From assembly GCA_009773805.1 (NCBI GenBank), contig WTXA01000004.1:295-64294 (forward strand): DNA of 64,000 nt, written 5' to 3'. The notes under the pieces were generated by a model. The model saw nothing but the letters and a program-made list of their open reading frames with translations, did not search any database and had not been told where the DNA came from. The DNA is from Fusobacteriota bacterium. GTDB lineage: Bacteria; Bacillota; TC1. Below, in pieces: positions 2,044-52,864 of this stretch. Position 1 is the first letter of the stretch, and each line of letters starts with the position of its first letter. A program made the position numbers and the translations under genes.

Positions 2044-2055
2044 GAGACTACATAA

Positions 2056-2083
2056 AAGGTGCAATGTAAATACATTGCACCTT
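2056..2083. terminator. Bidirectional intrinsic terminator between convergent PBP gene and tyrS
   Basis: Perfect 13-bp stem aaggtgcaatgta / tacattgcacctt with a 2-nt centre. Flanked by an A-run upstream and a T-run downstream. Confidence 0.7.
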
Positions 2084-2108
2084 ATTTTATTTATATTTTT
2101 TTATCAAA

Positions 2109-3320: not shown

Positions 3321-3373
3321 AAATATTTCTCCTTAACAATTAATGTCTCTAATTTTACCATAAAAAGAGAGTT

Positions 3374-3402
3374 TTGAAAATTGTTTGTTTTTTTGCTATA
3401 AT
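3374..3402 (+). promoter_or_regulatory. Sigma-A type promoter for the second PBP gene
   Basis: TTGAAA (3374-3379), 17-nt spacer, TATAAT (3397-3402), about 40 nt upstream of the ATG at 3443. Confidence 0.5.
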
Positions 3403-3442
3403 TAATAAGATATAAAACAATTAAGGAAGTGATCAAGAAATA

Positions 3443-5812: not shown

Positions 5813-5819
5813 GTGTTAA

Positions 5820-7541: not shown

Positions 7542-7554
7542 AGGAGTGAATTAA

Positions 7555-9408: not shown

Positions 9409-9433
9409 TTGAAAAAATGAAATTAAAAGATAG

Positions 9434-9485
9434 ACAAAAAGAGAAGAAACAATGAAGTGCACTTCATTGTTTCTTCTCTTTTTGT
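9434..9485. terminator. Long bidirectional intrinsic terminator between convergent LtaS-family gene and gatB
   Basis: About 24-bp perfect inverted repeat (acaaaaagagaagaaacaatgaagt / acttcattgtttcttctctttttgt) around a tgca centre. T- and A-runs are part of the arms. Confidence 0.8.
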
Positions 9486-9521
9486 TCCTTATTCTTTATT
9501 CTATTTTCTCTTTTAAACTAT

Positions 9522-12410: not shown

Positions 12411-12419
12411 AATTCACCC

Positions 12420-12704
12420 CTATAAAATACTTGGAACTTTGAAGTAATCATCTTCCCTGTCAGGAGCATTAGCTAATACATCCTCTAAATCCAAGCTCTT
12501 TTCAATAATATCAGTTCTAAAAACATTATGAATATCCAAGACATGACTAGTAGGTTCAACCCCTTGGGTATCTAATTCATTTAACTTTTCCATAAAATTC
12601 AAAACATCATTTAGTTCTTCCTCATATTTTTGCAATTCTTCATCATTCAAGCCTAATCTTGAAAGTATGGCTACATGTTTAACATCGTTAATTGTTATAC
12701 CCAT
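12420..12704 (-). CDS. gatC: Asp/Glu-tRNA amidotransferase subunit C
   Basis: 94-aa acidic protein directly upstream of gatA. Typical GatC N-terminus (VKHVAILSRL). Confidence 0.9.
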   Translation of the reverse strand: MGITINDVKHVAILSRLGLNDEELQKYEEELNDVLNFMEKLNELDTQGVEPTSHVLDIHNVFRTDIIEKSLDLEDVLANAPDREDDYFKVPSIL

Positions 12705-14700
12705 CTTCGACCTGCCTTTCTCCTATCTTTTTTAGAAATTCTTTAATTTCTATTACATCAACCCCAAGTTCTCTAGCCTTGGTCAATTTACTACCAGGTT
12801 CATTCCCTGCAAGTACAAATGAAGTCTTTTTTGATACACTTGAACTAGCTTTACCTCCATGAAGTTCTACTAAATTAGTCAATTCCTTCCTGTCATAACC
12901 TGGAAAACTTCCAGTTATTACAAAGGTTTTACCTACCAAGTCCTCACTTAAATTCTTAGTATCATCTTCCATCACAATTCCCAGATATTTCAAATCGGTA
13001 ATTATTTCTAAGTTTCTTTTTTCTTTGAAAAAAGTTAATAAACTATCTGCCATCTTATCCCCAACAGTTTCAATAGCTAATAACTCTTCACTTGTTGCCG
13101 CCATCAGCCTATCAACAGTCTTGAAATTTTTAGCTAATATCTTGGCCCCTTTATTACCTATAAGTGGTATACCAAAGCCATATATTAGCGGTCCTAAACC
13201 TCTTGTTTTACTAGTTTCAATAGCTTCAATTATATTATTGGCTGACTTTTCACCTAATCCTTCTAGCACACTAATATCATCTTTAGTCAATTTATATATA
13301 TCAACAGGTGTACTTATTAAACCCTCTTTGACAAAATATTCTATATATTTCTCACCTAAACCATCGATATTCATAGCATCTCTTGATACAAAATGTATTA
13401 AACCCTTTATTAATTGTGCTGGGCAGTATAGTTCTCCCGTACATTTTATACTTGCATCCAGTTTTATTACCTCGGATCCACAAACAGGACATACTACAGG
13501 AAATTTAAACACTTCACTATAATAAGGTCTTTTCTCGACTATAACTCTCACAACTTCAGGTATTACATCCCCGGCCTTTTGTAAAACTATGGTGTCTCCA
13601 ACCCTAATATCTTTTTCAAGGATATAGTCTTCATTGTGTAAAGTAGCACGTTTAACCATACTTCCACCTATCAAAGTTTCCTTTAATTCAGCCATAGGCG
13701 TAAGGACACCAGTTCTTCCAACTGATATAGTAATGTTCTCTACAATTGTTTCTTTTTGCTCTGGTGGAAATTTAAAAGCTATTGCCCATCTCGGACTTTT
13801 TTCAGTGTAGCCCATTTCTATTTGATCAGCTAAGCTATTAACCTTAACAACCACACCATCAATTCCATATTCTAGATTATTTCTCTCCACTACCAATTTT
13901 TCGCAGAATTCTATAATATCTTCTATATTACCAAGAACAAATCTTTCATTAGTATTAAACCCATTATTATTTAGTAACTTAATAGCATCACTTTGTTTTT
14001 TATAATCTAATACATTACTGTAGGTAATCTCATATATAAAAGATTTTAAATGTCTTTCCCTCGTTACATCACTATTTAATTGTCGTATTGAACCCGCAGC
14101 GCCATTTCTAGGATTTCTAAAAAGAGGTAGCCCTTCGTTAAGTCTTGTCTCATTCAAATCATCAAAAGTCTTATTGTCCATAAAGACTTCACCTCTGACT
14201 TCAAATTCACCAGCAACATCTATTGTTTTTGGAATATCTTCCACTTTAAGAATATTGTGGGTTACATTTTCACCAGAATCTCCATCTCCTCTAGTTGCAC
14301 CAACTATTAACAAACCATCCTTAAAGATCAGGGCGATTGATAATCCGTCTATCTTTAATTCAGCTATATATTCTACATCTGCCTTGTTTAAGGCTTTCTT
14401 AACTCTATTATCAAAGGTTCTTAAATCTTCATATGAAAAAGCATTGCCTAAACTAAGCAATGGATACCTATGCCTATATGAATGGAACTTTTCACTCACC
14501 TTGCCACCAACAATTTTTGTTGGACTATCCTGACTTATTAGTTCAGGATTGTCTTTTTCCAATTGAAGTAGTTCCTTCATATATTGGTCATATTCACTAT
14601 CGGTTATTGTCGGCATATCTTTTTCATAATAGTCAGCATTAGCTTTTTCTAATATTTTTCTAAGTTCTTCTATCCTTAACTTAATTTCCTTAATATTCAT
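12688..14700 (-). CDS. ligA: NAD-dependent DNA ligase
   Basis: Adenylation motif ELKIDG. Cys4 zinc finger (CPVCGS...C...C). HhH region and C-terminal BRCT (GKTFVITG). Confidence 0.95.
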   Translation of the reverse strand: MNIKEIKLRIEELRKILEKANADYYEKDMPTITDSEYDQYMKELLQLEKDNPELISQDSPTKIVGGKVSEKFHSYRHRYPLLSLGNAFSYEDLRTFDNRVKKALNKADVEYIAELKIDGLSIALIFKDGLLIVGATRGDGDSGENVTHNILKVEDIPKTIDVAGEFEVRGEVFMDNKTFDDLNETRLNEGLPLFRNPRNGAAGSIRQLNSDVTRERHLKSFIYEITYSNVLDYKKQSDAIKLLNNNGFNTNERFVLGNIEDIIEFCEKLVVERNNLEYGIDGVVVKVNSLADQIEMGYTEKSPRWAIAFKFPPEQKETIVENITISVGRTGVLTPMAELKETLIGGSMVKRATLHNEDYILEKDIRVGDTIVLQKAGDVIPEVVRVIVEKRPYYSEVFKFPVVCPVCGSEVIKLDASIKCTGELYCPAQLIKGLIHFVSRDAMNIDGLGEKYIEYFVKEGLISTPVDIYKLTKDDISVLEGLGEKSANNIIEAIETSKTRGLGPLIYGFGIPLIGNKGAKILAKNFKTVDRLMAATSEELLAIETVGDKMADSLLTFFKEKRNLEIITDLKYLGIVMEDDTKNLSEDLVGKTFVITGSFPGYDRKELTNLVELHGGKASSSVSKKTSFVLAGNEPGSKLTKARELGVDVIEIKEFLKKIGERQVEDGYNN

Positions 14701-14707
14701 TCTTCAC

Positions 14708-16867
14708 CTACCGTGATAGTTTTTTAATTGGAGCATACATAGCAAGTAGTTTTTTAATTCCTGAATTTGGGAAAGCAATTGATAACAAAAGATCCTTGCC
14801 ATCCCCTTCAATTTGTACAACCACACCTTCACCAAATTTACTATGAAATACTTTGTCACCAAGTCTGAATCCAGTTAGTATTGGTTCTTCACTATTTGAT
14901 GTTCTAGACATAAAAGTATCTCGTTCATAGGTCTTCTTGGCTACTGCTTGTTCCTTATGAGGAAAATCCTTTAACGCTGAAGGTATTTCATTTATAAATC
15001 TAGACATTTCATTACCACGAGTTATTCCATATTGATTTCTTAAATAGGCTCTTGTTAAATAGACTTTTTCTCTACCTCTTGTTATGCCAACATAACAAAG
15101 CCTTCTTTCCTCTTCCATCTCTACAGAACTACCAAGAGATCTAAAATGTGGGAAGATCCCCTCTTCCATTCCGGCTATAAAGACTATCTTATATTCAAGT
15201 CCTTTTGCCATATGTAAGGTTATTAGTGTGACTCTATTATCATCATTTAATTCATCAGTTTCGCTATATAAGGCTATATTACCTAAAAATGAATCTAAAG
15301 TCTTTTCTTCATCATGTATATCAAATTCTTTTGTTTCTGATAATAGTTCCTTCACGTTGGCAATTCTATCTCTTGCTTCATCGGATCTTTCTAGTTCAAG
15401 CTCCTTAAGATAACCTGTTTTATTGATTATAGCTTCAGTTAGCTCAGTTAGACTACATCCTGCCATTAATCTAAACTCACCAATCATTTGCAAAAATCCT
15501 AAAACCTTCTTTGAGGTTCCAGCATTTAAGTATTCGGCAGCTCTTTTCATGCTTTCTTCAATACTGATTTCTTCACTAGCCACAAAATTCAATATTTTAT
15601 CAACTGTAGTAGAACCAATACCTCTTTTAGGTGTATTTATTATTCTTTCAAAGGCAATTTGGTCCTTCGGATTATTTAAGAATTGAAGATAAGCAATTAT
15701 ATCTTTGATTTCTTTTCTTTTAAAGAAACTAAGTCCTCCAAATAACCTATAGGCTATCCCATAACGGGCAAGACTTTTCTCAATGATACGAGACTGAGCA
15801 TTTGTTCTGTAAAGGATAGCTATATCTTGATATTTATACCCTTTTCTTTTCTGTCTTTCAATTTCTCTAGCTAGATAAACAGCTTCTTCACTTTCAGTTT
15901 CAGCTTCAAAACAAGTTATTAAAGCTCCATCTTTTTTATTAGTCCAAAGATCCTTTGGTTTTCTATCGCTATTATTTTTAATAACTGCATTAGCTGCAGC
16001 TAGTATTTGTTCGGTGGAGCGGTAATTTTGTTCTAAAAAGACTACTTTTGCTCCAGGATTATCTTTTTCAAAATTAAGAATATTCCCCATATCTGCCCCT
16101 CTCCAGCCATATATAGACTGGTCAGGATCTCCTACAACACAAATATTCTTATGTATTTCTCCTAGCATCTTACTTAGTAGATATTGTACATAGTTAGTAT
16201 CTTGATACTCATCAATAAAAATATATTTAAATCTATTTTGGTAATATTCTAATACTTCCTTTTTCTTTTTAAATAATTCTACAGTTAAATACATCAAATC
16301 ATCAAAATCAAGACTATCAACAGATTTTAACTTCTTTTGATAATGCTTATATATTTTGGCAACAGCTTCTTCGTAATAGTCACTAGCTTTTTTGTTAGCT
16401 TGTTCCGGGCTTATAAGATTGTTCTTTAAAATGCTGATAGCATAAATGACAGCCTTGGCTGTAAATTTCTTGTCATCAATGTTAAGTTCTTTTAAGACTT
16501 TCTTCATTAGGTTTTCTTGGTCACTTGAATCATAGATATTGTAGTGATTAGTGTAGCCTAAGGCCTCAATGTCTCTTCTTAAAATCCTATTGCACATACT
16601 ATGAAAAGTACTAACCCATAAGGCTTTTGTAGTAAAGTTGCTGGTAGCAACAGCTATTCTGTTTTTCATTTCTTCAGCAGCCTTGTTGGTAAAGGTAATG
16701 GCTAGTATTTCATATGGACTTACACCTTTTTCAATTAAATGAGCAATTCTATTGGTTAGTACTTTGGTCTTTCCCGAACCTGCTCCTGCTATAATTAATA
16801 GTGGACCGTCACCATAGGTAACAGCCTCTTTTTGTTTTTCGTTTAATCCTGATAAATGTTTTTCCAT
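14708..16867 (-). CDS. pcrA: ATP-dependent DNA helicase PcrA (UvrD family)
   Basis: Walker A AGAGSGKT and UvrD-family motifs (DEYQDTN, VGDPDQSIY). Start moved to the ATG at 16867, which follows GAAGGAG; the track ORF begins at an upstream TTG. Confidence 0.93.
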   Translation of the reverse strand: MEKHLSGLNEKQKEAVTYGDGPLLIIAGAGSGKTKVLTNRIAHLIEKGVSPYEILAITFTNKAAEEMKNRIAVATSNFTTKALWVSTFHSMCNRILRRDIEALGYTNHYNIYDSSDQENLMKKVLKELNIDDKKFTAKAVIYAISILKNNLISPEQANKKASDYYEEAVAKIYKHYQKKLKSVDSLDFDDLMYLTVELFKKKKEVLEYYQNRFKYIFIDEYQDTNYVQYLLSKMLGEIHKNICVVGDPDQSIYGWRGADMGNILNFEKDNPGAKVVFLEQNYRSTEQILAAANAVIKNNSDRKPKDLWTNKKDGALITCFEAETESEEAVYLAREIERQKRKGYKYQDIAILYRTNAQSRIIEKSLARYGIAYRLFGGLSFFKRKEIKDIIAYLQFLNNPKDQIAFERIINTPKRGIGSTTVDKILNFVASEEISIEESMKRAAEYLNAGTSKKVLGFLQMIGEFRLMAGCSLTELTEAIINKTGYLKELELERSDEARDRIANVKELLSETKEFDIHDEEKTLDSFLGNIALYSETDELNDDNRVTLITLHMAKGLEYKIVFIAGMEEGIFPHFRSLGSSVEMEEERRLCYVGITRGREKVYLTRAYLRNQYGITRGNEMSRFINEIPSALKDFPHKEQAVAKKTYERDTFMSRTSNSEEPILTGFRLGDKVFHSKFGEGVVVQIEGDGKDLLLSIAFPNSGIKKLLAMYAPIKKLSR

Positions 16868-16910
16868 TATATCTCCTTCATACAACGATAATTATATCAT
16901 TTTTAATAGG

Positions 16911-16935
16911 AAAAAGGCATCTCAAGATGCCTTTT
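16911..16935 (-). terminator. Intrinsic terminator downstream of lgt
   Basis: Stem GGCATC/GATGCC with a 4-nt loop, followed on the minus strand by TTTTT. Confidence 0.6.
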
Positions 16936-16958
16936 AGTATATATATTTATTAGTTTGA

Positions 16959-17756
16959 TTATTTCTTTTTCTTCTTCTTTTTCTTTGAAGGAAACATATC
17001 ATGTGTATACAGATAAAGTAGATAAAATAAAGACATGAATATAGCTAAGCCACCTAACAATTGTGCAACTTTTATATCACCAATCATTAAACTATCAGTT
17101 CGCAATCCTTCAATTACTATTCTAGCAATTGAGTTAACGATTACTGCCAAAGCTATAAATGTACCTTTCTTTAACTTTGTTAGCTTAAGTATAAGAATTG
17201 TTAGTACAATGAACCAAAATATACCATTAATTGATTCATACAGGAATGTAGGGTGATAATATTTTCCATCAATCAGCATACCCTTCTCAATGAAAGCAGG
17301 AAATTTTTCAATAAAACCTTTAGTTACTACACTTCCATGAGCTTCCTGGTTAAAGAAATTACCCCATCTGCCAATTGCTTGTGCTAAAAGAGTTCCAATA
17401 CCTATTATATCCATATATCGTAAAGTATCCATTTTTTTCCACTTAGTGTAAACACCAATTGCTATCAGTCCGAATATAACACCACCATGGAAAGCTAGTC
17501 CACCTTGTCGTATATTGATTACATCCAATATCGAATCATACATATCTAAATTAAAAAATACATAATATAGTCTAGCACCTATAAAGCCACTCACTATCAC
17601 TGCAATAATCAGCCCAAAGAAATCATCCTCATTATAGATGCCTTCTTTTTTTAATATTAGACTTGAATATACAATTGTTGCTAAAACACCAATCGATATA
17701 AAAATCCCATACCACATAATACTTACTCCAAAAATTTCAAATGCTACTGGATTCAT
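16959..17756 (-). CDS. lgt: Prolipoprotein diacylglyceryl transferase with octa-lysine C-terminus
   Basis: Polytopic membrane protein with the Lgt signature GRWGNFFNQEAHG. C-terminus is SKKKKKKKK. Confidence 0.9.
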   Translation of the reverse strand: MNPVAFEIFGVSIMWYGIFISIGVLATIVYSSLILKKEGIYNEDDFFGLIIAVIVSGFIGARLYYVFFNLDMYDSILDVINIRQGGLAFHGGVIFGLIAIGVYTKWKKMDTLRYMDIIGIGTLLAQAIGRWGNFFNQEAHGSVVTKGFIEKFPAFIEKGMLIDGKYYHPTFLYESINGIFWFIVLTILILKLTKLKKGTFIALAVIVNSIARIVIEGLRTDSLMIGDIKVAQLLGGLAIFMSLFYLLYLYTHDMFPSKKKKKKKK

Positions 17757-18620
17757 CTACTCACTCCTTAATTTTGTTAATTTTGTAAATTCTTCTATTG
17801 AAAGGGTTTCAGCCCTTCTTTTACCATCTATTTTTGCCAAGTCCAGAAAATCTTGGACGGCACTCTTTTCTCCGCCAAAAATCCCTGCAAAAGAATTTAG
17901 CATATTTTTACGCCTCATGGCAAATCCACTTTTTATAAATTGGAAGAAGACTTTTTCAAGATCTTTTTCTAATAATTCTGATTTGTCTTTTAAATATAGC
18001 TTTATTACAACGGAATCAACTTTTGGTACAGGAAAAAAATTCTCCTTACCAACCTGAGTTACCAGGCTTGCTTCAGCATAGTACTTGACCGCAAGAGTCA
18101 ATACGCCATAGGCTTTAGTTCCAGGGGTTGCTAAGATTCTTTCTCCAACCTCTTTTTGGACCATTACTGTAATGCTTTCCATTCCAAAGTTATTTTCCAA
18201 TAAATGCATCAGTATAGGTGAAGTTATATAGTAGGGTAGATTTGCAACCACTTTAATACCACTTTGTCCTTCAAAAACTTCAGCTAGATCCACCTTCAAA
18301 ATATCGGCGTTCATTATTTCTAAATTATCGAATTCCCTAGTATTGTTTGTTAACAAAGGGATAGCATTTCTATCCAACTCAACAGCCACAACCTTTTTAG
18401 CTCTTGCTAAAAGATACCTGGTTAATGAACCTACTCCTGGACCAATTTCTAATACTATATCATCACTACCAACATCAGCACCATCAACTATTTCTAAGGC
18501 AATGCTCTCATTTACTAAAAAGTTTTGTCCTAAACTCTTCTTTGTATGAAAACTATTTCCGCCTAAGTTGGCTTTAAGATTCTTTAATTCACTTAATTTA
18601 CTTTCAACATCTTTTTTCAT
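17757..18620 (-). CDS. rsmA: 16S rRNA (adenine1518/1519-N6)-dimethyltransferase
   Basis: KKSLGQNFL motif, SAM-binding LEIGPGVGSLT, NLPYYITSPI. Confidence 0.93.
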   Translation of the reverse strand: MKKDVESKLSELKNLKANLGGNSFHTKKSLGQNFLVNESIALEIVDGADVGSDDIVLEIGPGVGSLTRYLLARAKKVVAVELDRNAIPLLTNNTREFDNLEIMNADILKVDLAEVFEGQSGIKVVANLPYYITSPILMHLLENNFGMESITVMVQKEVGERILATPGTKAYGVLTLAVKYYAEASLVTQVGKENFFPVPKVDSVVIKLYLKDKSELLEKDLEKVFFQFIKSGFAMRRKNMLNSFAGIFGGEKSAVQDFLDLAKIDGKRRAETLSIEEFTKLTKLRSE

Positions 18621-22670: not shown

Positions 22671-22709
22671 AAAAAACAAATAAGGATTGACCAATTATGA
22701 TCAATCCTT
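22671..22709 (-). terminator. Intrinsic terminator closing the long minus-strand operon
   Basis: 9-bp stem aaggattga/tcaatcctt with a 10-nt loop, followed on the minus strand by ATTTGTTTTTT. Lies about 150 nt past the stop of the last operon gene. Confidence 0.6.
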
Positions 22710-22861
22710 ATCATCCAATAGCATGGAATAAATACTGAAGGAATAAAGCCTAAATTAGATTTTGATTAATAATATAAGTATGTTGGATATACTTTTATGG
22801 AGGATATTAAACATTATCGAGTATGTTCAATTTGGACTTTAGCCCTTCAGATATTATCAAT

Positions 22862-23476
22862 TTATTTAATACCTTTTATCAACTTTAGAGTTTCCCCTAC
22901 TTTCCTTGTTAATGTTTCAAGATTCTTAATCCCATATTCATCAACTTCTTGTGTAAAAGGTACCGTGTCCTTACTCCAGATTGCAGCTCCACTATATACT
23001 CCCATGGAAGCACCAATTGGAATAATACCGTTTGTATGGAAGAAACCATGAAGTGAGCTAATAGTCATTTCCTGACCACCATTTCTTGCACCACCAACAG
23101 CTATTGCCATTCCCAACTTGTCATAAAAAACGTTAGGATTTTCTTTCAATGCATTGTAGTTTGGTCTAGTTCTACTTAATATAGCACTCATTTGAGGTGA
23201 CATCCCCATTTCATATATTGGAGAGCCCAATACTATAATATCACTAGCTAAAAACTCTTCATTGATATGCGAAATATCGTCTTGAAAAATTGTGCAGGTC
23301 TTAGTATTTTTCTTAACACAATCATTACAATGAATACACATGTTAATTTTCTTGCCTCTAACAGTAAAATATGTAGTTTCTACTCCATATTCCTTTTCAA
23401 GTATTTCTAGAGCTCGTCTAACTGCAAAGTCTGTAGCGTTTTTTCTAGTACTTCCGCAAATTCCTATTGCTTTCAT
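22862..23476 (-). CDS. NADPH-dependent FMN reductase-fold protein with iron-sulfur flavoprotein (Isf)-type cysteine cluster
   Basis: Flavodoxin-like N-terminus (MKAIGICGSTRKN). Compact motif C-x2-C-x2-C-x7-C (CIHCNDCVKKNTKTC), as described for Methanosarcina Isf. Starts 2 nt after the stop of the upstream gene. Confidence 0.7.
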   Translation of the reverse strand: MKAIGICGSTRKNATDFAVRRALEILEKEYGVETTYFTVRGKKINMCIHCNDCVKKNTKTCTIFQDDISHINEEFLASDIIVLGSPIYEMGMSPQMSAILSRTRPNYNALKENPNVFYDKLGMAIAVGGARNGGQEMTISSLHGFFHTNGIIPIGASMGVYSGAAIWSKDTVPFTQEVDEYGIKNLETLTRKVGETLKLIKGIK

Positions 23477-23478
23477 AT

Positions 23479-24459
23479 TTATACCTTCTTCCTTTTGTTC
23501 TTAAAGAAGCTACTGGAGATTATGTCTTCCCTAATATTTCCTTGTGAGAAAATATTACCTGTATTCATGTTGAAAATTTCAACTCTAGCAGGAGAATGAA
23601 TGTTTAGATCCATTTTGTAGTATGTTCTATCTGCTTCTAAATACAGCTCCCTAAATGATCTGCCATAGTCTTTTGAATATTCTGTTACCAATTTTGGTAA
23701 AATTCTGGTAATTTCTTCATCACTCTTACACTTAACCCAGTATTGTGATCTGCCACCATATAGTAGTGAATCGTTTATCTTGCCCATCGCTTCATCATCA
23801 TCTAAAGTAACTGGAGCTACCAAGGCAAAACCTCTTGCAAATTCCAAGGCATATTCTATGCTTTGGTCTTCTTGCATCATGATTTTATGTAGTGTTTGTT
23901 CCAAAATACGAGCAGCTACTTGAACTGCAGCTACTATTGAAGTATTGTTATGAACCAGCAAATATATATTATCAGGACTCATATTACATTCTTCTGCTAT
24001 TTTCATAGCAATTTCATCATCTGGAACTCTTTGTCCTTGTACTCCAAGTACAACTAATTCTGCTTCAGTATCCCTGTAACTATCAGGAATATCAAAACAA
24101 TAATCTTCCTTATTTCTAGCTACAGCCCTTCCAGGGCCTGAACCAATCATACCATCCCCAATAGGATAAGAGGCAATTTGGCTGTACCTCAGAGCCAAAA
24201 TCGGCTCTGAAGTCATAACCTCAACAGCTAAACAGCTGTGTCCATCTTCAAGTACATAGTCTCTATAGGTTACAGTTCCAAGATCAGCCATATTTATTTC
24301 AGTAAATAGTCTAGCTGCCTCAAAGCTGCCTTTAGCCTCAATTCCCATGTCGATTATATTTGCTCCGCATGGTAATTTATAGCTTTTACATGATAATGCT
24401 TCATAATTATCTAAAATGAATTGTAATTTTCTTTTTACGTTGTTGTTTAAACTAATCAT
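23479..24459 (-). CDS. Methenyltetrahydromethanopterin cyclohydrolase (Mch, PF02289)-like protein, paralog 2
   Basis: About 320 aa. Blocks recalled from archaeal Mch: GANIIDMGIEAKGSFEAARLF, GSGPGRA, IVAAVQVAARILEQTLHK, AMGKINDSLLYGG, and a C-terminal ...NIREDIISSSF. Collinear with the ORF at 27985-28947. Confidence 0.7.
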   Translation of the reverse strand: MISLNNNVKRKLQFILDNYEALSCKSYKLPCGANIIDMGIEAKGSFEAARLFTEINMADLGTVTYRDYVLEDGHSCLAVEVMTSEPILALRYSQIASYPIGDGMIGSGPGRAVARNKEDYCFDIPDSYRDTEAELVVLGVQGQRVPDDEIAMKIAEECNMSPDNIYLLVHNNTSIVAAVQVAARILEQTLHKIMMQEDQSIEYALEFARGFALVAPVTLDDDEAMGKINDSLLYGGRSQYWVKCKSDEEITRILPKLVTEYSKDYGRSFRELYLEADRTYYKMDLNIHSPARVEIFNMNTGNIFSQGNIREDIISSSFFKNKRKKV

Positions 24460-24466
24460 GTTTCAC

Positions 24467-25993
24467 CTATATTTCGTTAATTAATTCTTGAATTCTGTTT
24501 AAGAACCTTGCTGCTGGAGCACCATTAATCACTCTGTGATCATGTGTCAAGCTAAATGACATTAGATTCTTTTTATAGAATCCACCATCTCTTACAGCTA
24601 ATTCTCTTCTGATAGCACCTAGTCCTAGAATAGCACTTTCACCAATATTTAATACAGGAGTGAAATATTTGATACCAAACATTCCTAGGTTAGTCATGGT
24701 AAATGATCCATAACTTAAATCGTTTTCAGTCAATTTACCTGCTTTAGCTTTTTCAGCCAACTGTGCTAGTTCAGTAGCTACAGCAGAATAGAATTTCTTG
24801 TCGGCATTTTTAATGTTAGGGACAAAAAGTCCACCTTCTACATCAATTGCTATACCAATATTTACATCAACAAGTTCTTTGAACATATTGTCTTCTATAA
24901 CTGTTCTCATGATTGGATACTCTTTTAAAGCTTTTGCAATTAGATTTACCAATACTGAAGTGTAACTTAATTTTACTCCCATAGCAGCATAATCTGTTTT
25001 GTTAGCCTGATAGAATTCAACTAGATTATCAACATCCATATCCATAGTTATAGTAGTTTGGGCAGTTTCTTGTAGACTCTTATACATTCCTGACGCAATG
25101 GCTTTTTCCATAGCTGTCATTTTTCTGTTAATAGGTGTTGGCGCTAAAGCAACATTTTTAAGAAGTCCTAGATCATAGGCTTTCTTAATATCTTCTCTAG
25201 TTACCATATTATAGTAACCAGTTCCCTTGATTCTTGTAGCATTTACTCCAAGCTCATCAGCTAGTTTTTGTGCCTTTGTTGTTAGAACTGAAGAACCATA
25301 AGAGTTTGAATCAGCAGCAACTTCTTCATTAACTTCTACAACTTCCACTACTGGTTTATTGTTTTCTACAACTTCCATTTCAGAAGGAGAACATTGTGAA
25401 AAAACTTCACCTTCAGCTGCAACTTCACCTTCTCCGATTTTAGCGATTGTCTTACCACAGTTAACTGTAGCACCTTCTTCTACTAAAGGATAAAAAGGTC
25501 CAGCTACTGGAGCCATTAATTCATTTGTAAGTTTTTCTATTGCTATTTCTGCGATTACATCGCCTTCTTCAACCATATCCCCTGCAGAGAAGAACCATGT
25601 TGAAACAGTTCCTTCTTCCATATTAGCACCATATCTTGGCATTACTACAATTGTTGCATCACTTGAGGATACTACATCTGCAACTTGCTTTTGATCTTGT
25701 ACAATTTCAGGTGATTTTTCTTGTACAGTAGGTGTCGACTCTTCAATATCTTCACCTTGTTGTCCTATATAGGCTATTGGAGTTCCACAATCATATGTTT
25801 CACCCTCAGCACCTACTAATTTTAATATTATTCCATCTTCAGGTGCAAGAAGCTCATTACTTAATTTTTCGATAGCTATTTCAGCTATCGCCTGGCCTTT
25901 TGTTACAGATTCTCCCTCTTCAACAAACCAGGTAGCAATAGTCCCTTCATCCATGTTAGCCCCATATCTAGGCATTTCGATTACAGTAGACAT
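24467..25993 (-). CDS. 2-oxoacid/acetoin dehydrogenase E2 (dihydrolipoamide acyltransferase) with two lipoyl domains
   Basis: Two N-terminal lipoyl-type domains (MPRYGANM[DE]EGT...AEIAIEKL[ST]NEL). E1/E3-binding domain (KAQKLADELGVNATRIKGTG). Catalytic domain with DHRVINGAPAARFL. Confidence 0.88.
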   Translation of the reverse strand: MSTVIEMPRYGANMDEGTIATWFVEEGESVTKGQAIAEIAIEKLSNELLAPEDGIILKLVGAEGETYDCGTPIAYIGQQGEDIEESTPTVQEKSPEIVQDQKQVADVVSSSDATIVVMPRYGANMEEGTVSTWFFSAGDMVEEGDVIAEIAIEKLTNELMAPVAGPFYPLVEEGATVNCGKTIAKIGEGEVAAEGEVFSQCSPSEMEVVENNKPVVEVVEVNEEVAADSNSYGSSVLTTKAQKLADELGVNATRIKGTGYYNMVTREDIKKAYDLGLLKNVALAPTPINRKMTAMEKAIASGMYKSLQETAQTTITMDMDVDNLVEFYQANKTDYAAMGVKLSYTSVLVNLIAKALKEYPIMRTVIEDNMFKELVDVNIGIAIDVEGGLFVPNIKNADKKFYSAVATELAQLAEKAKAGKLTENDLSYGSFTMTNLGMFGIKYFTPVLNIGESAILGLGAIRRELAVRDGGFYKKNLMSFSLTHDHRVINGAPAARFLNRIQELINEI

Positions 25994-26005
25994 ACAATTT
26001 CCTCC

Positions 26006-26983
26006 TTAATATGCCATTACTTCATTACAAGCGGTAATTACATCCTCATAATGTGGCAAGACATAATCTTCCATTCCTGGAGCAAAAGGTACTGGTGTAT
26101 CAAGAGATGTAACCCTCTTAATTGGAGCTTTTAGATATTCGAATAATTCTTCACCTAACATAGCACCAATTTCAGCACCATAACCCATTACTTTAGGACC
26201 TTCTTGAACTACAACTAGTCTACCAGTCTTAGCAACTGACTTCTTAATTGTTTCTTTATCTAATGGGAAAATTGTTCTTGGATTAATAATTTCAACAGAA
26301 ACTCCTTTAGCAGCCATTTCGTCAGCTGCTTTATGAGCAAATTTCAACATACTCATTGCCGCAACTATTGTGATGTCTGCTCCTTCTCTTGCTACATGTG
26401 CCTCATAAAGTGGTATTTCATATAGTTCTTCAGGAACTTCACCTTTAACATTATATAAATGTTTGTGTTCTAGGAAAACAACTGGATTATTATTTCTAAT
26501 TGAAGCAACTAAAAGTCCTTTTGCTTCATATGGAGTAGCAGGAGCAACAATAACAAGTCCTGGTATATTCATCAACCATGGCTCGATACATTGTGAGTGA
26601 TGATAGGCACATCTGATTCCACCACCAGTTACAGCTCTTACTACCATTTGAGCGCTAGCTTCACCTTGATACATATAGTTTAATTTTGCTGCATTATTTA
26701 CTAACTGGTCATAACATACTGTTATAAAGTCAGCGAACATTAATTCAGCTACTGGTCTTAGACCGCAAACGCTTGCACCACATGATAAACCTGTAATTGC
26801 AGATTCTGACAAAGCAGTATCAAATGCTCTATCTGGCCATCTATCCCAAATTCCACTTGTTATTCCAAAGTCGCCACCCATTTTGGCAACGTCTTCTCCT
26901 AATATAAAAACGCTATCATCACGTTCCATTTCTTGCATCATAGCTTCGTTAAGAGCCTTGCTAAATGATATAGTTCTAGCCAT
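26006..26983 (-). CDS. Thiamine-diphosphate-dependent dehydrogenase E1 beta subunit (AcoB/PdhB-like)
   Basis: Typical E1-beta length and blocks (FILGEDV...GG, DTALSESAI, transketolase C-terminal-like domain). 1-nt overlap with the E1 alpha gene. Confidence 0.88.
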   Translation of the reverse strand: MARTISFSKALNEAMMQEMERDDSVFILGEDVAKMGGDFGITSGIWDRWPDRAFDTALSESAITGLSCGASVCGLRPVAELMFADFITVCYDQLVNNAAKLNYMYQGEASAQMVVRAVTGGGIRCAYHHSQCIEPWLMNIPGLVIVAPATPYEAKGLLVASIRNNNPVVFLEHKHLYNVKGEVPEELYEIPLYEAHVAREGADITIVAAMSMLKFAHKAADEMAAKGVSVEIINPRTIFPLDKETIKKSVAKTGRLVVVQEGPKVMGYGAEIGAMLGEELFEYLKAPIKRVTSLDTPVPFAPGMEDYVLPHYEDVITACNEVMAY

Positions 26984-27969
26984 TATCTTCCCTCCACTTC
27001 TCTGTCAGTGTATACATATTTAACCGCATCTTCTGGTTTTGGAACTGGAGATTCTAGTGAGAATTTTACATACTCAGCTATTTCAGTTTCTACTCTTTCA
27101 GAAATCGCTTCAATTTCAGCATCGCTAACACCATGATTTTCTTGTAATCTTTGTTTAGTTATTTTTAATGGATCTTTTTCTTTCCAAGCTTCTAATTCAC
27201 CATCAGGTCTGTAAGCTGCTGGGTCTCCTGAGAAGTGACCTTGCCACCTATAGGACATCATTTCAATCAATGTAGGTCCTTCACCACGTCTTGCTCTATC
27301 AACAGCTTGTTGGGTAACTTCAATAACTTCCTCAATGTCGTTTCCATCAATTGTCATACTAGGAACTTCGTAACCTAGGCCCCAAGTTGAAAGTTGTTTT
27401 TGTGGATGTGCTTCTGTATAGTGAGTTGAAATTGCATATTGATTATTAATCAATACATAAATTAAAGGTAACTTCCATGTTGCTGACATATTTAAACTCT
27501 CGTGACATGTACCTTCACCTAGTGTTCCATCTCCCATAAATACAACTGTTACATCATCATTTTTTCTGTAAACAGAATTGAAAGCAGTTCCTAAAGCAGT
27601 AACAACAGTTGACCCTTGGATTCCATTGAAGCCCATGTTTCTTACTGATAAATCGTGAACGTGCATACTTCCACCTCTACCTCCATTGATACCTGTAGCT
27701 TTAGCGAAAATCTCTGACATACATCTTTTTCTTTCCTCAGGTTTGCTTGATAACACGATAGCACCGTGTCCTCTGTGATCTGGGAACTTGTAGTCTGTAT
27801 CTTTCAAAACATCGACAACTCCAGCTTGCGCTGCTTCTTGTCCAATGCTCAAATGTATAAATCCTGGTATAGTTCCATTTTTTGCATATACTTCAACTTC
27901 TTCTTCGAAGCGACGTATAAGCAACATGTCCTCGTAAACTTTTAATAAATGTTCTTTACTTAATGACAT
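26983..27969 (-). CDS. Thiamine-diphosphate-dependent dehydrogenase E1 alpha subunit (AcoA/PdhA-like)
   Basis: IRRFEE, GFIHLSIGQEA, and ThDP motif GDGTLGEG...NNQYAIS. Confidence 0.88.
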   Translation of the reverse strand: MSLSKEHLLKVYEDMLLIRRFEEEVEVYAKNGTIPGFIHLSIGQEAAQAGVVDVLKDTDYKFPDHRGHGAIVLSSKPEERKRCMSEIFAKATGINGGRGGSMHVHDLSVRNMGFNGIQGSTVVTALGTAFNSVYRKNDDVTVVFMGDGTLGEGTCHESLNMSATWKLPLIYVLINNQYAISTHYTEAHPQKQLSTWGLGYEVPSMTIDGNDIEEVIEVTQQAVDRARRGEGPTLIEMMSYRWQGHFSGDPAAYRPDGELEAWKEKDPLKITKQRLQENHGVSDAEIEAISERVETEIAEYVKFSLESPVPKPEDAVKYVYTDREVEGR

Positions 27970-27984
27970 TATTTGTCCTCCTTT

Positions 27985-28947
27985 CTAATTTAAGAAGCTT
28001 TTTCTTATAACTTCTTTATTTATCTCACCAGCTGTAAAGCATTTTCCGGATCTTATACTTTGCAACTGAATACGAGCTATTGAATGAAAATCATGGTCTA
28101 CTTTATAGAAGTCACAACCACAATCTTCGAACACTTTTGCAAAAGGTTCTGGATAATATGGTGATGAAGTGCTTGATACTAGTTGATGAACAACTTTTTG
28201 ACATTCTACATCATCTGCATCTACCCAAAATTCTGTGGTACCACCATAAAGGATGGCATCATTGATTCTGCCCATAGCTTTTATTTCGTCATTAACTAGT
28301 GGTGCAATCGGAGCAATACCTCTACAATTAACTACTTTACTAACTTCAAAACCTTTTTCATGCATTTTATGACAAACTTGTTCTAATAACCTAGCAGCTA
28401 CTTGAACACTACCAACTATGCAAGCACTAGGTGCTAGCAGAAGATATACATCCTTAACATCAACTTTACAAGCTGCTGCTACTTCTTTGGCAATTTCATC
28501 AGATGGATATTTGATGTCCTGGATACAAAGAACCACTTCATCGTTTCTATCTCTGTATGGAGTCATATCAAGATACATATCTGTAGGTACTACAGCTTGT
28601 GCTCTTGCTGGTCCTGATCCAATTGTTGCGAAGTTACCTTCACCTAATTGCCAACCGGCAATTTGTGAGCCTAAACATGTAATTAATGGTTCGGTTACAA
28701 ATAGTTCTACAGCGCTAAATGATATTTCTTCATCAAGTTTCCAAGAACCTAATTGAACAGTACCAGTGTTACCCATTGTAACTTTAGTGAACATAATCCC
28801 CGCTTCATAGGAGCCTTTAGCCTCTAGTCCACAGTCGATTAGCGTCGCGCCACAGTCCATTTTAACAACCTTAACGCCAATTTTATCGCAATCTTCAATC
28901 ATTTCTCTGACTACTTTCATAGCCTCTTTGTTAATACTTAAAGCCAT
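27985..28947 (-). CDS. Methenyltetrahydromethanopterin cyclohydrolase (Mch, PF02289)-like protein, paralog 1
   Basis: GATLIDCGLEAKGSYEAGIMF, GSGPARA, VYLLLAPSACIVGSVQVAARLLEQVCHKMHEKGF, IAPIAP, AMGRINDAILYGG, DFYKVD, EINKEVIRKSF. By recall this closely mirrors archaeal Mch sequences along the whole length. Confidence 0.75.
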   Translation of the reverse strand: MALSINKEAMKVVREMIEDCDKIGVKVVKMDCGATLIDCGLEAKGSYEAGIMFTKVTMGNTGTVQLGSWKLDEEISFSAVELFVTEPLITCLGSQIAGWQLGEGNFATIGSGPARAQAVVPTDMYLDMTPYRDRNDEVVLCIQDIKYPSDEIAKEVAAACKVDVKDVYLLLAPSACIVGSVQVAARLLEQVCHKMHEKGFEVSKVVNCRGIAPIAPLVNDEIKAMGRINDAILYGGTTEFWVDADDVECQKVVHQLVSSTSSPYYPEPFAKVFEDCGCDFYKVDHDFHSIARIQLQSIRSGKCFTAGEINKEVIRKSFLN

Positions 28948-28958
28948 TTTATTCCCTC

Positions 28959-29690
28959 CTAATATCTGTTGCCGAATACATCTATTGCGGCACCTTTGAT
29001 TGGAGAAGCATCGTCAGAAACCAAGAATAGTACAACCTTTGATACTTCAGGTGGTTGTAGCATTTCTTCTAGCGGAATTACTACCGCTGCGTCAGAATCA
29101 ACTCTCTCTCTTGTCTTTTCAGTGTTTACCATTCCTAAATATATTGAATTAACATTAATGTTATCGTATTTAACTTCTTCTGATAAAATATTTGAGAAGG
29201 TTATAATACCTCCTTTTGAAGCACCATATGCTGCAAAGCCTGGGAAGAATACTTTAGCTCCAGCAGATGCTATATTAAGAACTTTTCCATATTTCTTTTC
29301 AAGCATATATGGTATAACGGCTTTGGTAAAATAGAAAGTTCCATTTAGATTGATATTTATTTGTTTTTCCCAATCTTCAACAGAAGTTTCAACGACTGGT
29401 TGTCCTTTGTAATAGGCTGCATTATTAATTAAAATATCAATACCACCAGCATTTTTCACTATGTCATCTACACAAGCTTGTACAGCTTTTGCATCGCTAA
29501 CGTCAACTTTATAAGTAATAGCCTTAGCACCTGACGCTTCTATAGTTTTTTTCATGTTTTCTAATCCAATTACATCCATGTCGATTAAGGCAACAGTTGC
29601 ACCTTCATTAGCTAAATCAATTGCATACTGTGCTCCTAGTCCTCTGGCTGCTCCAGTTACTATCGCTACCTTGTTTTCAAATCTTCTCAT
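28959..29690 (-). CDS. Short-chain dehydrogenase/reductase (SDR)
   Basis: TGAARGLG cofactor motif, NNAA, catalytic S...YxxxK (YGASK). Confidence 0.88.
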   Translation of the reverse strand: MRRFENKVAIVTGAARGLGAQYAIDLANEGATVALIDMDVIGLENMKKTIEASGAKAITYKVDVSDAKAVQACVDDIVKNAGGIDILINNAAYYKGQPVVETSVEDWEKQININLNGTFYFTKAVIPYMLEKKYGKVLNIASAGAKVFFPGFAAYGASKGGIITFSNILSEEVKYDNINVNSIYLGMVNTEKTRERVDSDAAVVIPLEEMLQPPEVSKVVLFLVSDDASPIKGAAIDVFGNRY

Positions 29691-29697
29691 TTTACAC

Positions 29698-30354
29698 CTA
29701 ACTTTCTAAAACTTTCTCCAATATTGTATAACAATGGAGTTCATGTTCCTCAATAATATCTCTCATTTTTTTCTTATCTTTTGTAATGATACATTCCAAT
29801 ATTTTAAAGTGATCCTCTGCAAGTAAATTAGCATCATCAGGACATTTACCTACTCCAGCTATATATAGTGACTTATGTAAAAAAGTGTGATCATTCAAGA
29901 TGTCTTTTACACTAGGCAAATTTACCAAGGCATATAACTCTTCGTGATACTTCTCTGCGAAATCGACATATTTTTTTCCATCACAACTATTTATAGCCTT
30001 TTGACTGCCATTTACATATTCTTCTAATAATTTTCTTTTACTGTCAGAAATCGCACTATTGTCAATAATATAGTCCATGGCAACAATTTCCAAGGCTCCA
30101 GATATTAGCAAACTCTCTTTAATCTCGCTAAGGGATAAATCCTTTATTCTGAAACCAACTCCAGGATACATTGTTATATAACCTTCAGATTCTAGAATTT
30201 TAATTGCACCACTAACCGGTGTTCTACTTACTCCAATTTCATTAGCTACATCGACAATAGTGTAAAGATGATTCTTCTTATAGAGTCCCTGTCCAATTTT
30301 GTCTTTTATCTCATTGTAAGCAAATTCAGTTTTTGTAATGAACTTTCTAACCAT
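29698..30354 (-). CDS. GntR-family transcriptional regulator (FadR/FCD-type C-domain)
   Basis: N-terminal wHTH (VDVANEIGVSRTPVSGAIKILESEGYI) plus an all-helical C-terminal domain. Embedded mid-operon. Confidence 0.8.
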   Translation of the reverse strand: MVRKFITKTEFAYNEIKDKIGQGLYKKNHLYTIVDVANEIGVSRTPVSGAIKILESEGYITMYPGVGFRIKDLSLSEIKESLLISGALEIVAMDYIIDNSAISDSKRKLLEEYVNGSQKAINSCDGKKYVDFAEKYHEELYALVNLPSVKDILNDHTFLHKSLYIAGVGKCPDDANLLAEDHFKILECIITKDKKKMRDIIEEHELHCYTILEKVLES

Positions 30355-30370
30355 TGTTCCTCATTTCCAC

Positions 30371-41543: not shown

Positions 41544-41557
41544 ACTTGGAGGAAAAT

Positions 41558-42925: not shown

Positions 42926-42995
42926 TAGTATTAAGTATACAATTAATATTATATAGTAATTGATAAAATTTAATAAGAAGATTAGGAGTGATAAT

Positions 42996-43910: not shown

Positions 43911-43924
43911 AAGAGGTGGATAAT

Positions 43925-52616: not shown

Positions 52617-52629
52617 TTTTTCCTCCTTG

Positions 52630-52864
52630 AATATAAAAAGTACTATCATCACAAGAGACGATAGTACCGTGGTTCCACTCTATTTCTAAAAACAAATGTT
52701 TTTACTTTACCTCTTAACGCAAGGTTGACGTGTCCCTTAATAAATTCAGGTCCCTCTCCTAGGTGGTTTTCTTTTAGTCTTTCTTAGGAAGTTTCCAGCT
52801 ACCTTCCCTCTCTGTTAAGATTATCTTAAAATACTCGTCCTAGTCATCGATTTTATCAATACTT
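52630..52864 (-). promoter_or_regulatory. T-box leader (Thr specifier) controlling thrS
   Basis: On the minus strand: stem I elements (AGAGAG, GGTAGCTGGAAAC), candidate specifier region GAAAACCACCTAGG (ACC = Thr), conserved T-box sequence AGAGTGGAACCACGGTA (about 52664-52683), then a terminator GTACTATCGTC...GATGATAGTAC + TTTTT (52635-52668). Confidence 0.8.

Follow-up and report, generated by a model that had tools for sequence, protein, structure and literature searches.

A probable new-substrate subfamily of Mch proteins within an undescribed catabolic gene cassette

What are two homologues of methenyl-tetrahydromethanopterin cyclohydrolase (Mch) doing on either side of a dehydrogenase complex in a bacterial contig? 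The question is raised by a 64-kb stretch of contig WTXA01000004.1 (the window; 64,000 nucleotides, with positions counted from its first letter), in which the genes of the two homologues, here named MchA and MchB, enclose those of a thiamine- and lipoyl-dependent complex. An earlier note, made from the letters of the window, had supposed that the Mch fold was recruited here for a cyclic substrate other than that of tetrahydromethanopterin (H4MPT)-dependent one-carbon metabolism. The analysis indicates that the two proteins probably represent a subfamily of the Mch family with a new substrate, encoded in an undescribed catabolic cassette. The fuller reading, in which they would act outside H4MPT one-carbon metabolism in an uncharacterised anaerobic cassette for breakdown of a purine- or pteridine-type heterocycle, appears to us finely balanced. 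The two genes are:

27985-28947, minus strand: MchA, 320 residues, Mch-family protein, predicted ring formamidine or imine hydrolase
23479-24459, minus strand: MchB, 326 residues, the more divergent of the two Mch-family paralogues, lying 7 nt downstream of the E2 gene

Both are genuine Mch-family proteins, and assignment to another fold family is excluded. MchA matches PF02289 over profile positions 1-311 of 311 (E=1.4e-105, 353 bits; cutoff 25) and MchB over its full length (E=6.7e-78, 262 bits; same cutoff). The cutoff of the equivalog model TIGR03120 (228.8 bits) is exceeded by MchA (330 bits) and, marginally, by MchB (234.3 bits). As the earlier note had stated, the two are collinear with each other (37% identity over 322 columns, E=6e-71) and with archaeal Mch, aligning end to end with the solved enzymes of Methanopyrus kandleri (1QLM; 42% identity for MchA, 36% for MchB) and Archaeoglobus fulgidus (4GVQ; 35% and 30%), and the motifs that it named (GSGPxRA, VQVAAR and AMGxIND..LYGG) are present. 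The AlphaFold2 model of MchA, with a predicted local distance difference test (pLDDT) score of 92.8, matched 1QLM, 4GVQ and 4FIO in Foldseek with template modelling (TM) scores of 0.90-0.92 (0.92 to 1QLM and 4GVQ) and no other fold at E<0.01; MchB was assigned by sequence. The catalytic pair Arg183/Glu186 is kept in MchA (AARLLEQ), in MchB (AARILEQ) and in all cassette copies described below. The position of Glu186 (A. fulgidus numbering) is the sole aligned difference between 4GVQ and its E186Q variant 4GVR. The invariant residues of the family (GSGPxR, Q179, N226, D227) are mostly kept as well. Full-length homology, the two-domain alpha/beta fold and Arg183/Glu186 are therefore common to these proteins and canonical Mch (EC 3.5.4.27; 1QLM, 4GVQ, 4FIO).

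The differences from canonical Mch lie in phylogeny, in particular residues and in gene context. A search of 1.84 billion representatives supplied the 137 family members of a neighbour-joining tree, in which the MchA and MchB types form sister clades (bootstrap 95% for the MchB clade and 84% for the two together), separate from the clade with the three solved archaeal enzymes. Nearly all of the 32 positions conserved in at least 85% of 99 canonical representatives are kept in the A/B clade. All A and B members and 95% of other non-canonical members have Gln at position 140, where Glu stands in 92% of the canonical set; position 280 is His throughout the A and B clade, as against Phe in 91% of canonical proteins. 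Glu140 and Phe280 also occur in the three Mch proteins of the PDB and in the Mch of Azospirillum. Archaeal Lys94 is replaced by Ile in MchA, and MchB, which shares Gln140 and His280 with it, carries W97Y, G176A and P210L in addition (P210L/M/V across the MchB type). As a speculation, E140Q could mirror a change of pyrimidine ring, with a 2-oxo group in place of the 2-amino group.

As for context, the control was a canonical bacterial mch on an Azospirillum brasilense plasmid (35% identical to MchA), whose neighbours are fhcA, fhcC and fhcD, genes for an NAD(P)-dependent methylene-H4MPT dehydrogenase, RFAP synthase and ATP-grasp proteins, and fae. In contrast, fae, mtd, ftr, fhc and H4MPT-biosynthesis genes were found in none of about 100 cassette neighbourhoods (21 dereplicated lineages), where the Mch genes are linked to E1 and E2 genes instead. 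In agreement with the earlier note, no gene for Fae, Mtd, Ftr, Fhc/Fwd or H4MPT biosynthesis was found among the open reading frames (ORFs) of the window scanned against Pfam and/or NCBIfam (n=41). Four ORFs were named by sequence alone and four transporter ORFs by BLAST against annotated loci; nine of at least 120 residues lay outside the scan (45181-45858, 45663-46076, 54931-55566, 56272-56970, 56933-57331, 58740-59291, 59197-59895, 63289-63987 and 13025-13522, the last antisense within the DNA ligase gene). With regard to carriage of cassette Mch by plasmids or phages, a plasmid search returned only canonical proteobacterial and haloarchaeal mch at less than 36% identity.

By context, phylogeny and residues, MchA and MchB are predicted not to be ordinary Mch. 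The separate clade, the conserved catabolic context and the E140Q/F280H changes with the catalytic pair retained agree with the view that the fold was recruited for another cyclic C=N substrate; they support this part of the earlier proposal, with the substrate itself put forward here as a candidate. The phylogeny of PF02289 members gave what the note had suggested looking for, i.e., a distinct clade with conserved non-H4MPT neighbourhoods.

The two genes belong to an operon-like cluster of 15 genes (roughly 15.8 kb, about 22,680-38,460, minus strand), with MchA transcribed between the short-chain dehydrogenase/reductase (SDR) and E1alpha genes and MchB between the E2 and FMN_red-like genes. 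Intergenic gaps are 2-15 nt across SDR-MchA-E1alpha and E2-MchB-FMN_red. The other members, in order of transcription, are:

37288-38247, minus strand: Rib7/RibD_C-like NAD(P)H pyrimidine reductase homologue, 319 residues, first gene (PF01872, E=2.8e-11)
35765-37162, minus strand: cog0402-type amidohydrolase, 465 residues, deaminase or ring amidohydrolase (PF01979, E=5e-61)
34609-35658, minus strand: BMP/PnrA-family substrate-binding protein of an ATP-binding cassette (ABC) importer (PF02608, E=7.4e-40)
33024-34547, minus strand: ABC ATPase with two ATP-binding cassettes, 40-43% identical to proteins with two PF00005 domains of L001, L015 and L016
31928-33034 and 31021-31935, minus strand: two BMP-type ABC permeases, 37-39% identical to PF02653 permeases of L001, L015 and L016
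30371-31018, minus strand: lipoate-protein ligase (LplA-type) catalytic-domain protein, 215 residues (PF21948, E=2.9e-23)
29698-30354, minus strand: GntR/FCD transcriptional regulator (PF00392, PF07729)
28959-29690, minus strand: classical SDR, 243 residues, 11 nt upstream of MchA (PF00106, E=1.1e-54)
26983-27969, minus strand: E1alpha, thiamine-diphosphate subunit, 328 residues (PF00676, E=2.9e-74)
26006-26983, minus strand: E1beta, 325 residues (PF02779, PF02780)
24467-25993, minus strand: E2 acyltransferase with two lipoyl domains, 508 residues (PF00364 twice, PF02817, PF00198)
22862-23476, minus strand: FMN_red/iron-sulfur-flavoprotein-like protein, 204 residues, last gene (PF03358, E=1.5e-22)
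22679-22712, minus strand: terminator-like hairpin (15-bp stem, then a T-run) at the end of the operon, before polA

The presence of E1alpha, E1beta and E2 between the Mch genes bears out the dehydrogenase complex seen in the earlier note, and their grouping with the amidohydrolase, the reductase and the BMP-type importer agrees with the catabolic and transport-related context described there. E1alpha has human pyruvate dehydrogenase (PDH) E1alpha as its best PDB match and is 66-78% identical across phyla. E1beta passes NF006667, the PDH E1beta subfamily model (330 bits; cutoff 321), and E2 shows the catalytic DHR motif in its translation. E1alpha and E2 lie below every curated equivalog cutoff, the E1beta subfamily model being the only one passed, and no known substrate class is assigned to the complex. 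The best NCBIfam match of the amidohydrolase is 8-oxoguanine deaminase (297 bits; cutoff 532), ahead of SsnA (176 bits; cutoff 444), and its best PDB matches, 3HPA and 7WW2, are 8-oxoguanine deaminases; among deaminases it stands nearest to the 8-oxoguanine/isoxanthopterin type. The PDB relatives of the BMP protein are Med, purine- and nucleoside-binding BMP proteins and AtzT. The Rib7-like reductase is below NCBIfam cutoffs by sequence (TIGR00227, 48 bits against 150); among structures, Rib7/RibD reductases and Rv2671 are the best matches of its AlphaFold2 model (pLDDT 80.6), with target-normalised TM of about 0.72-0.74, and the protein carries about 100 extra residues, segments 68-93 and 274-292 being modelled at low confidence. 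The FMN_red-like protein has a Cys-rich CxxCxxC motif in its translation. Between the BMP and ABC ATPase genes lies a perfect palindromic hairpin with a 16-bp stem (34568-34603), which could be an intra-operon attenuator raising expression of the binding protein over that of the membrane components.

Is the association of Mch with this complex a peculiarity of one contig? A search of a large protein collection returned 2,299 MchA relatives at E<=1e-10, every named one annotated as Mch; the closest belong to uncultured Clostridia, Anaerolineae, Spirochaetia and Christensenellaceae. Exact-protein look-up located the core SDR-Mch-E1alpha-E1beta-E2-Mch in metagenome-assembled genomes (MAGs) of Anaerolineaceae, Spirochaetia, Christensenellaceae and Peptococcaceae/Clostridia, and also in two complete-size genomes. 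A single-protein scan of genome contigs added 8 loci and an alignment-based metagenome scan 80 loci, many from human-gut assemblies. For lineage counts, ORFs were called and clustered by all-against-all BLAST, and loci with at least 6 kb of context were dereplicated at 85% Mch identity, which gave the 21 lineages (loci are cited by L numbers). The partners of Mch are encoded as follows:

E1alpha, adjoining Mch: 18 of 21 lineages
E1beta: 17 of 21
E2: 15 of 21
SDR, adjoining an Mch gene: 14 of 21 (absent from the Clostridioides difficile version)
cog0402 amidohydrolase: 13 of 21
second Mch: 10 of 21
E3, encoded in cis: 8 of 21 (C. difficile included)
BMP-type ABC transporter: 8 of 21
LplA: 7 of 21
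Rib7-like reductase: 6 of 21 (C. difficile included)
FMN_red-like protein, within the cassette: 5 of 21
xanthine dehydrogenase (XDH)-family molybdenum enzyme: 5 of 21
URO-D-like protein: 5 of 21
TIGR03792-like small protein: 4 of 21

The GntR/FCD gene has an equivalent position in L001, L012, L013, L015 and L016. Even distant Mch relatives keep similar company: P0122 is followed by E1alpha and E1beta, P0123 is preceded by a free lipoyl protein and an SDR, and P0129 has E1, FMN_red and BMP genes nearby. The linkage in 18 of 21 lineages across phyla rules out that the Mch genes are hitch-hikers beside an ordinary PDH or acetoin operon. E1beta is better conserved between phyla (67-82% identity) than MchA (56-72%), which fits lateral spread of the whole cassette.

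Two further neighbours recur. A TIGR03792-family (ABM-like) small protein of 113-118 residues recurs beside Mch homologues or within the cassette in four independent lineages (L005 8497-8838, L021 1303-1656, L042 18280-18627, L061 1620-1976). A stand-alone TrpB gene (TIGR00263, 585 bits) lies divergent to the GntR-SDR-Mch cassette in L011-L014, a group of Clostridia/Peptococcaceae MAGs (L012 7011-8243, minus strand), and also in L034; it may reflect lineage synteny or indole salvage. The same pyridoxal-phosphate enzyme of L011-L014 had been considered as a diaminopropionate ammonia-lyase, and so as a tie to the urate pathway, which its identification as TrpB excludes.

The cassette also occurs in cultured hosts. 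Cluster look-up found clade members 57-59% identical to MchA in C. difficile, where they are present in many assemblies (example AXU76729.1), and in Pseudoflavonifractor species; neither is known to make H4MPT, which speaks against a true H4MPT function. The C. difficile locus (L103/L104; assemblies GCA_045896135.1 and GCA_045862535.1, locus coordinates 5280-18225) encodes a xanthine-permease-type NCS2 carrier, a [2Fe-2S] (Fer2_2) subunit, an XdhA-like molybdenum subunit, Mch, E1alpha, E1beta and E2, followed by the cog0402 amidohydrolase, the Rib7-like reductase and E3, and lacks SDR and MchB. The gut (Pseudoflavonifractor-type) form adds LacI, FMN_red, LplA, SDR, the TIGR03792-like protein, a metallo-beta-lactamase-fold protein and the phosphotransacylase PduL. 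Permeases of the two forms have PbuX xanthine permease as their best subfamily (354 and 317 bits; cutoff 414), and the molybdenum subunit best matches XdhA (633 bits; cutoff 780), its closest structure being 4-hydroxybenzoyl-CoA reductase, a reductive dehydroxylase. By the presence of PduL, LplA and E3, the E1-E2 complex is predicted to be a working catabolic acyl-CoA generator. Immediately 5' of the C. difficile cassette lie a Peptidase_M19 gene, a DUF5058 gene and a gene for a 533-residue Amidohydro_3 protein.

What could the substrate be? To judge from their families, the partners point to a fused-pyrimidine heterocycle, purine or pteridine, sometimes with a sugar or ribityl group. The Rib7/RibD fold binds 5-amino-6-ribosylaminopyrimidines, and its Rv2671 version a dihydropteridine. 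In L061 the cassette is embedded in a gene set of predicted uricolytic type, comprising a YgeY-family hydrolase (402 bits; cutoff 321), a PreA/PydA-like flavoprotein with ferredoxin domains, a carbamoyltransferase (OTCase), a three-subunit XDH and a second amidohydrolase. L019 (15771-17455) has two FolB (dihydroneopterin aldolase) genes, one of them fused to an arylformamidase-like/"cyclase" domain, beside an Mch homologue and a BMP transporter; upstream on the same contig there is a frameshifted E1/FMN_red/BMP copy. L022 encodes an energy-coupling factor (ECF) transporter with a PF07155 riboflavin-type S component, a weak match of 20 bits in NCBIfam, together with an amidohydrolase and a helix-turn-helix-cupin regulator. 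Xylose-isomerase-like and FGGY-kinase genes lie near the cassette in three lineages (L003, L071, L079), and opine/sarcosine-oxidase-like DAO, Fer2_4 and Pyr_redox genes flank it in L005 and L015.

Taken together, these families suggest a pathway of four steps. A purine- or pteridine-type N-heterocycle, as base or nucleoside, would be imported by the BMP-type ABC system here and by the xanthine-permease-type NCS2 carrier elsewhere. It would then be trimmed by the cog0402 amidohydrolase and reduced by the Rib7/RibD-like NAD(P)H reductase, with an XdhA-like molybdenum enzyme taking part in some lineages. The Mch homologues, acting through Arg183/Glu186, would hydrolyse a ring N=C-N (formamidine) or C=N bond, thereby opening the ring. 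Finally, E1alpha-beta/E2, with E3 in cis elsewhere, would oxidatively cleave a ring-derived 2-oxo-acid or alpha-ketol to an acyl-CoA, and the PduL gene of the gut version indicates that ATP could be gained from it.

Several observations weigh against this interpretation. Both paralogues exceed the NCBI "equivalog" cutoff for true Mch, and the 42% similarity of MchA to archaeal Mch equals that of proteobacterial Mch. The superclade of all non-canonical Mch has only 52% bootstrap support in the neighbour-joining tree, and Gln140 and His280 are differences seen at the level of the alignment. Accessory genes are patchy, the Rib7-like and XDH-like genes in particular (6 and 5 of 21 lineages), and an XDH-like gene and E3 are absent from the cluster of the window, whose only Pyr_redox_2 protein (42960-43910, 316 residues) is of thioredoxin-reductase size. 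The substrate is deduced only from the families of neighbouring genes, among which FolB, the ECF riboflavin-type S component, sugar kinase and isomerase, trpB and the opine/sarcosine-oxidase-like genes hint at other substrates. Rfam revealed no purine, flavin mononucleotide (FMN), tetrahydrofolate (THF) or other relevant riboswitch, whether at the gathering threshold (the window plus seven loci) or at E<=1 (leaders in the window and in the C. difficile locus). Biochemical or genetic data on any cassette member were not found in the literature. Full-text searches found no publication on the cassette, papers outside the searched literature being possible, and Mch, lipoyl and 2-oxo-acid enzymes go unmentioned in the papers on purine pathways and in the one on lumazine in Cupriavidus.

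The specific form of the purine reading that we favour is a C8-first anaerobic route through the formamidine of the imidazole ring, which would be the fourth; it is speculative and seems to us doubtful. All three known purine pathways begin at the pyrimidine ring (PMC12507026), and for that reason such a route would be new. The Rib7-like enzyme would first reduce C4=C5 of an 8-H purine such as xanthine and so remove its aromaticity. The resulting imidazoline N7=C8-N9 would resemble the N5=CH-N10 amidinium of methenyl-H4MPT, the carbon in both cases sitting on the 5-amino nitrogen of a 5,6-diaminopyrimidinone. Hydrolysis by Mch would then give a 5-formamidopyrimidine, in direct analogy to the conversion of methenyl-H4MPT to N5-formyl-H4MPT. 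Loss of ammonia and the action of the amidohydrolase would turn the C4-C5-C6 unit into a 2-oxo-acid of the 3-ureidopyruvate type (ureido- or aminopyruvate), from which E1E2E3 would form CO2 and N-carbamoylglycyl-CoA for ATP synthesis. The route would be redox-neutral, as the reductase spends NAD(P)H and E3 regenerates NADH.

With the same gene architecture, the substrate could instead be a pteridine or a ribityl-lumazine/flavin-derived compound, which we regard as rather unlikely. The pyrazine-ring C=N of a dihydropterin or of 6,7-dimethyl-8-ribityllumazine would be hydrolysed; the alpha-dicarbonyl or alpha-ketol released, similar to diacetyl or acetoin, would be converted by SDR and the acetoin-dehydrogenase-like E1-E2 to an acyl-CoA, and the Rib7-like enzyme would act on the ribitylamino- or ribosylamino-pyrimidine remnant. 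Characterised Mch does bind a tetrahydropterin; ribosylaminopyrimidines and dihydropteridines are ligands of the Rib7/RibD and Rv2671 fold; and sets of SDR with E1alpha-beta/E2 resemble butanediol/acetoin dehydrogenase systems. The FolB genes of L019, the S component of L022, FMN_red in the cassette and the pentose isomerase and kinase genes of three lineages point in the same direction. However, the riboflavin-type match is weak, SDR is absent in C. difficile, the permeases and molybdenum enzyme of the C. difficile and gut forms are closest to xanthine-type proteins, and the YgeY, PydA-like and OTCase partners indicate ureide or purine chemistry.

A third possibility, which we consider unlikely, keeps the two proteins in one-carbon metabolism: they would be methenyl-THF cyclohydrolases processing formimino or formyl units from purine fermentation, and E1-E2 would be the pyruvate dehydrogenase of the same fermentation. 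Clostridia already possess FolD and FchA, and two sister paralogues would be redundant. The retention of the catalytic residues and of most pocket-wide conservation, the context related to purine catabolism and the match of E1beta to the PDH subfamily model are all in line with such a role, but FolD, Fhs, FtcD, GlyA and glycine-cleavage genes occur in none of the neighbourhoods examined, and a generic one-carbon enzyme would not be expected to show the tight linkage to E1alpha that Mch has in 18 of 21 lineages. The proposed precedent is Haloferax HVO_2573, an Mch homologue of a host without H4MPT, whose annotation is considered wrong and for which methenyl-THF was proposed (PMC8305020). It is likewise an Mch-family protein with a proposed non-H4MPT substrate; the haloarchaeal proposal, however, stays within one-carbon metabolism, whereas the Mch of the window are encoded in a catabolic operon with a thiamine/lipoyl complex and enzymes of nucleobase type.

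It is improbable that the Mch homologues open a cyclic alpha-imino acid, for example pyrroline- or piperideine-2-carboxylate formed by an amino-acid or opine oxidase, with decarboxylation of the 2-oxo-acid by E1-E2 and only a secondary link to nucleobases. Opening of a carboxylate-bearing ring C=N would directly make an E1 substrate, and DAO, Fer2_4 and Pyr_redox genes do flank the cassette in L005 and L015; yet oxidase genes are found in those two lineages only, the commoner partners being deaminase-type amidohydrolases, the Rib7-like reductase and nucleobase or nucleoside transporters, and Mch chemistry is hydrolysis of an amidinium, not of a ketimine.

That MchA and MchB are bona fide methenyl-H4MPT cyclohydrolases, with the H4MPT pathway elsewhere in the genome or methanopterin scavenged from methanogens, is highly improbable: both paralogues exceed the TIGR03120 equivalog cutoff, MchA shares 42% identity, the fold and the catalytic pair with M. 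kandleri Mch, and H4MPT-linked genes are reported in some Firmicutes and Chloroflexi (PMC5020050), but no H4MPT or methanofuran gene lies among the scanned ORFs of the window or in about 100 neighbourhoods, in contrast to the canonical Azospirillum mch embedded among such genes, and the changes at E140 and F280 are clade-wide.

If the preferred reading of a purine- or pteridine-degrading cassette is followed, why are there two paralogues? The MchA type is encoded directly upstream of E1alpha in almost every lineage. The MchB type follows E2 and is lacking in 11 of 21 lineages, among them C. difficile and the form from the human gut. A heteromer was one of two arrangements offered in the earlier note; as an obligate arrangement it is disfavoured, since about half of the lineages do without MchB. 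The other, action on two intermediates, is possible where both are present. The retained catalytic pair of MchB, its further changes at conserved positions and its patchy presence argue for an ancient duplication inside the cassette, with MchB as a putative optional second hydrolysis. Three lineages (L005 219-1948, L034, L065) have a third kind of Mch pair beside the cassette, consisting of a divergent Mch of about 321-335 residues (TIGR03120, 201 bits, below the cutoff) and a short Mch-like protein of about 236-254 residues with a faint PF02289 signal. This could be a heteromeric arrangement or one with a degenerate partner.

Among known systems, the anaerobic reductive (2,8-dioxopurine) uric-acid cluster, which comprises XdhD, YgfK/UacX, SsnA, HyuA, YgeW, YgeY and YgeX, SsnA being its ring-opening amidohydrolase (PMC12507026), is built from similar kinds of parts. 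These are an XDH-family molybdenum enzyme, reductive dearomatisation, SsnA-type ring opening and removal of a ureido group. The likeness is limited, however: YgeY, PydA-like and OTCase genes were seen only in L061, the window has only the SsnA-related amidohydrolase, and HyuA and YgeX were not seen in the cassette neighbourhoods examined. The cassette, in contrast, has the Mch-type hydrolase, the Rib7-like reductase and a complex of the 2-oxo-acid-dehydrogenase type, and its Mch-type step would point to the C8 formamidine as the site of attack. Acetoin and pyruvate dehydrogenase complexes share with it PF00676, PF02779/PF02780, the lipoyl domain and PF00198, as well as E3 and LplA in cis in other lineages; they differ in that the E1alpha and E2 of the cassette are below equivalog cutoffs, Mch-linked and accompanied by an unusually conserved E1beta. 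The trio of cyclohydrolase, deaminase and Rib7-like reductase mirrors the first steps of riboflavin biosynthesis. The likeness to purine-related cyclohydrolases is mechanistic only, a ring formamidine carbon being hydrolysed to an N-formyl group: GTP cyclohydrolases II/III and IMP cyclohydrolase have unrelated folds, take nucleotides as their biosynthetic substrates and in most cases depend on metal ions, which Mch does not need.

The passing of the equivalog cutoff explains why clade proteins, those of C. difficile and Pseudoflavonifractor included, are automatically named "methenyltetrahydromethanopterin cyclohydrolase", a name that is probably wrong. In metagenomes they may be counted as markers of methanogenesis or methylotrophy despite their origin in fermentative bacteria. 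If the proposed function is true, the Mch fold, until now tied to one reaction, gains a second and widely distributed one, and a ring-opening hydrolase is directly coupled to a thiamine/lipoyl dehydrogenase complex. The gene set suggests an uncharacterised way in which anaerobes, a pathogen and human-gut species among them, would obtain carbon, nitrogen and ATP from compounds of purine or pteridine type, with a bearing on urate and purine homeostasis and perhaps on how pterins or riboflavin precursors are turned over. Given the occurrence of the cassette in C. difficile and gut Pseudoflavonifractor, the C8 route, if true, would mean that gut microbes have a new sink for purines from host and diet. 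Direct tests are feasible, since there are hosts in culture that are amenable to genetics.

The earlier note had also taken the host for a Firmicute, which is reasonable, since the nearest public relatives of the locus are Bacillota/Eubacteriales MAGs (MchA 98% identical). The Rib7-like protein of the window (37288-38247) is 100% identical to protein P0343 of an NCBI MAG labelled "Fusobacteria bacterium", and a clostridial ChW-repeat protein is encoded at 45743-46945; an error of binning or taxonomy probably lies behind the "Fusobacteria" label.

Beyond the cluster the window has a housekeeping character, with genes for two class A penicillin-binding proteins, a TyrS/TrpS-type synthetase, GatA/GatB, LigA, PcrA, Lgt, PolA, AsnB, threonyl-tRNA synthetase with a T-box, cysteinyl-tRNA synthetase, RadA and Dus. 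The T-box leader (52651-52856, minus strand; 121.8 bits, gathering score 93) lies directly 5' of the threonyl-tRNA synthetase gene (50715-52652), an ordinary arrangement. A plus-strand island amid minus-strand genes (41546-44983) encodes a radical SAM/SPASM-domain protein, the thioredoxin-reductase-like flavoprotein of 316 residues and an HtrA-type protease. At the start of the window (1-9408), the paralogous class A penicillin-binding proteins (1-2043 and 3443-5812) lie near two paralogous LtaS-like sulfatase-family proteins (5820-7541 and 7555-9408).

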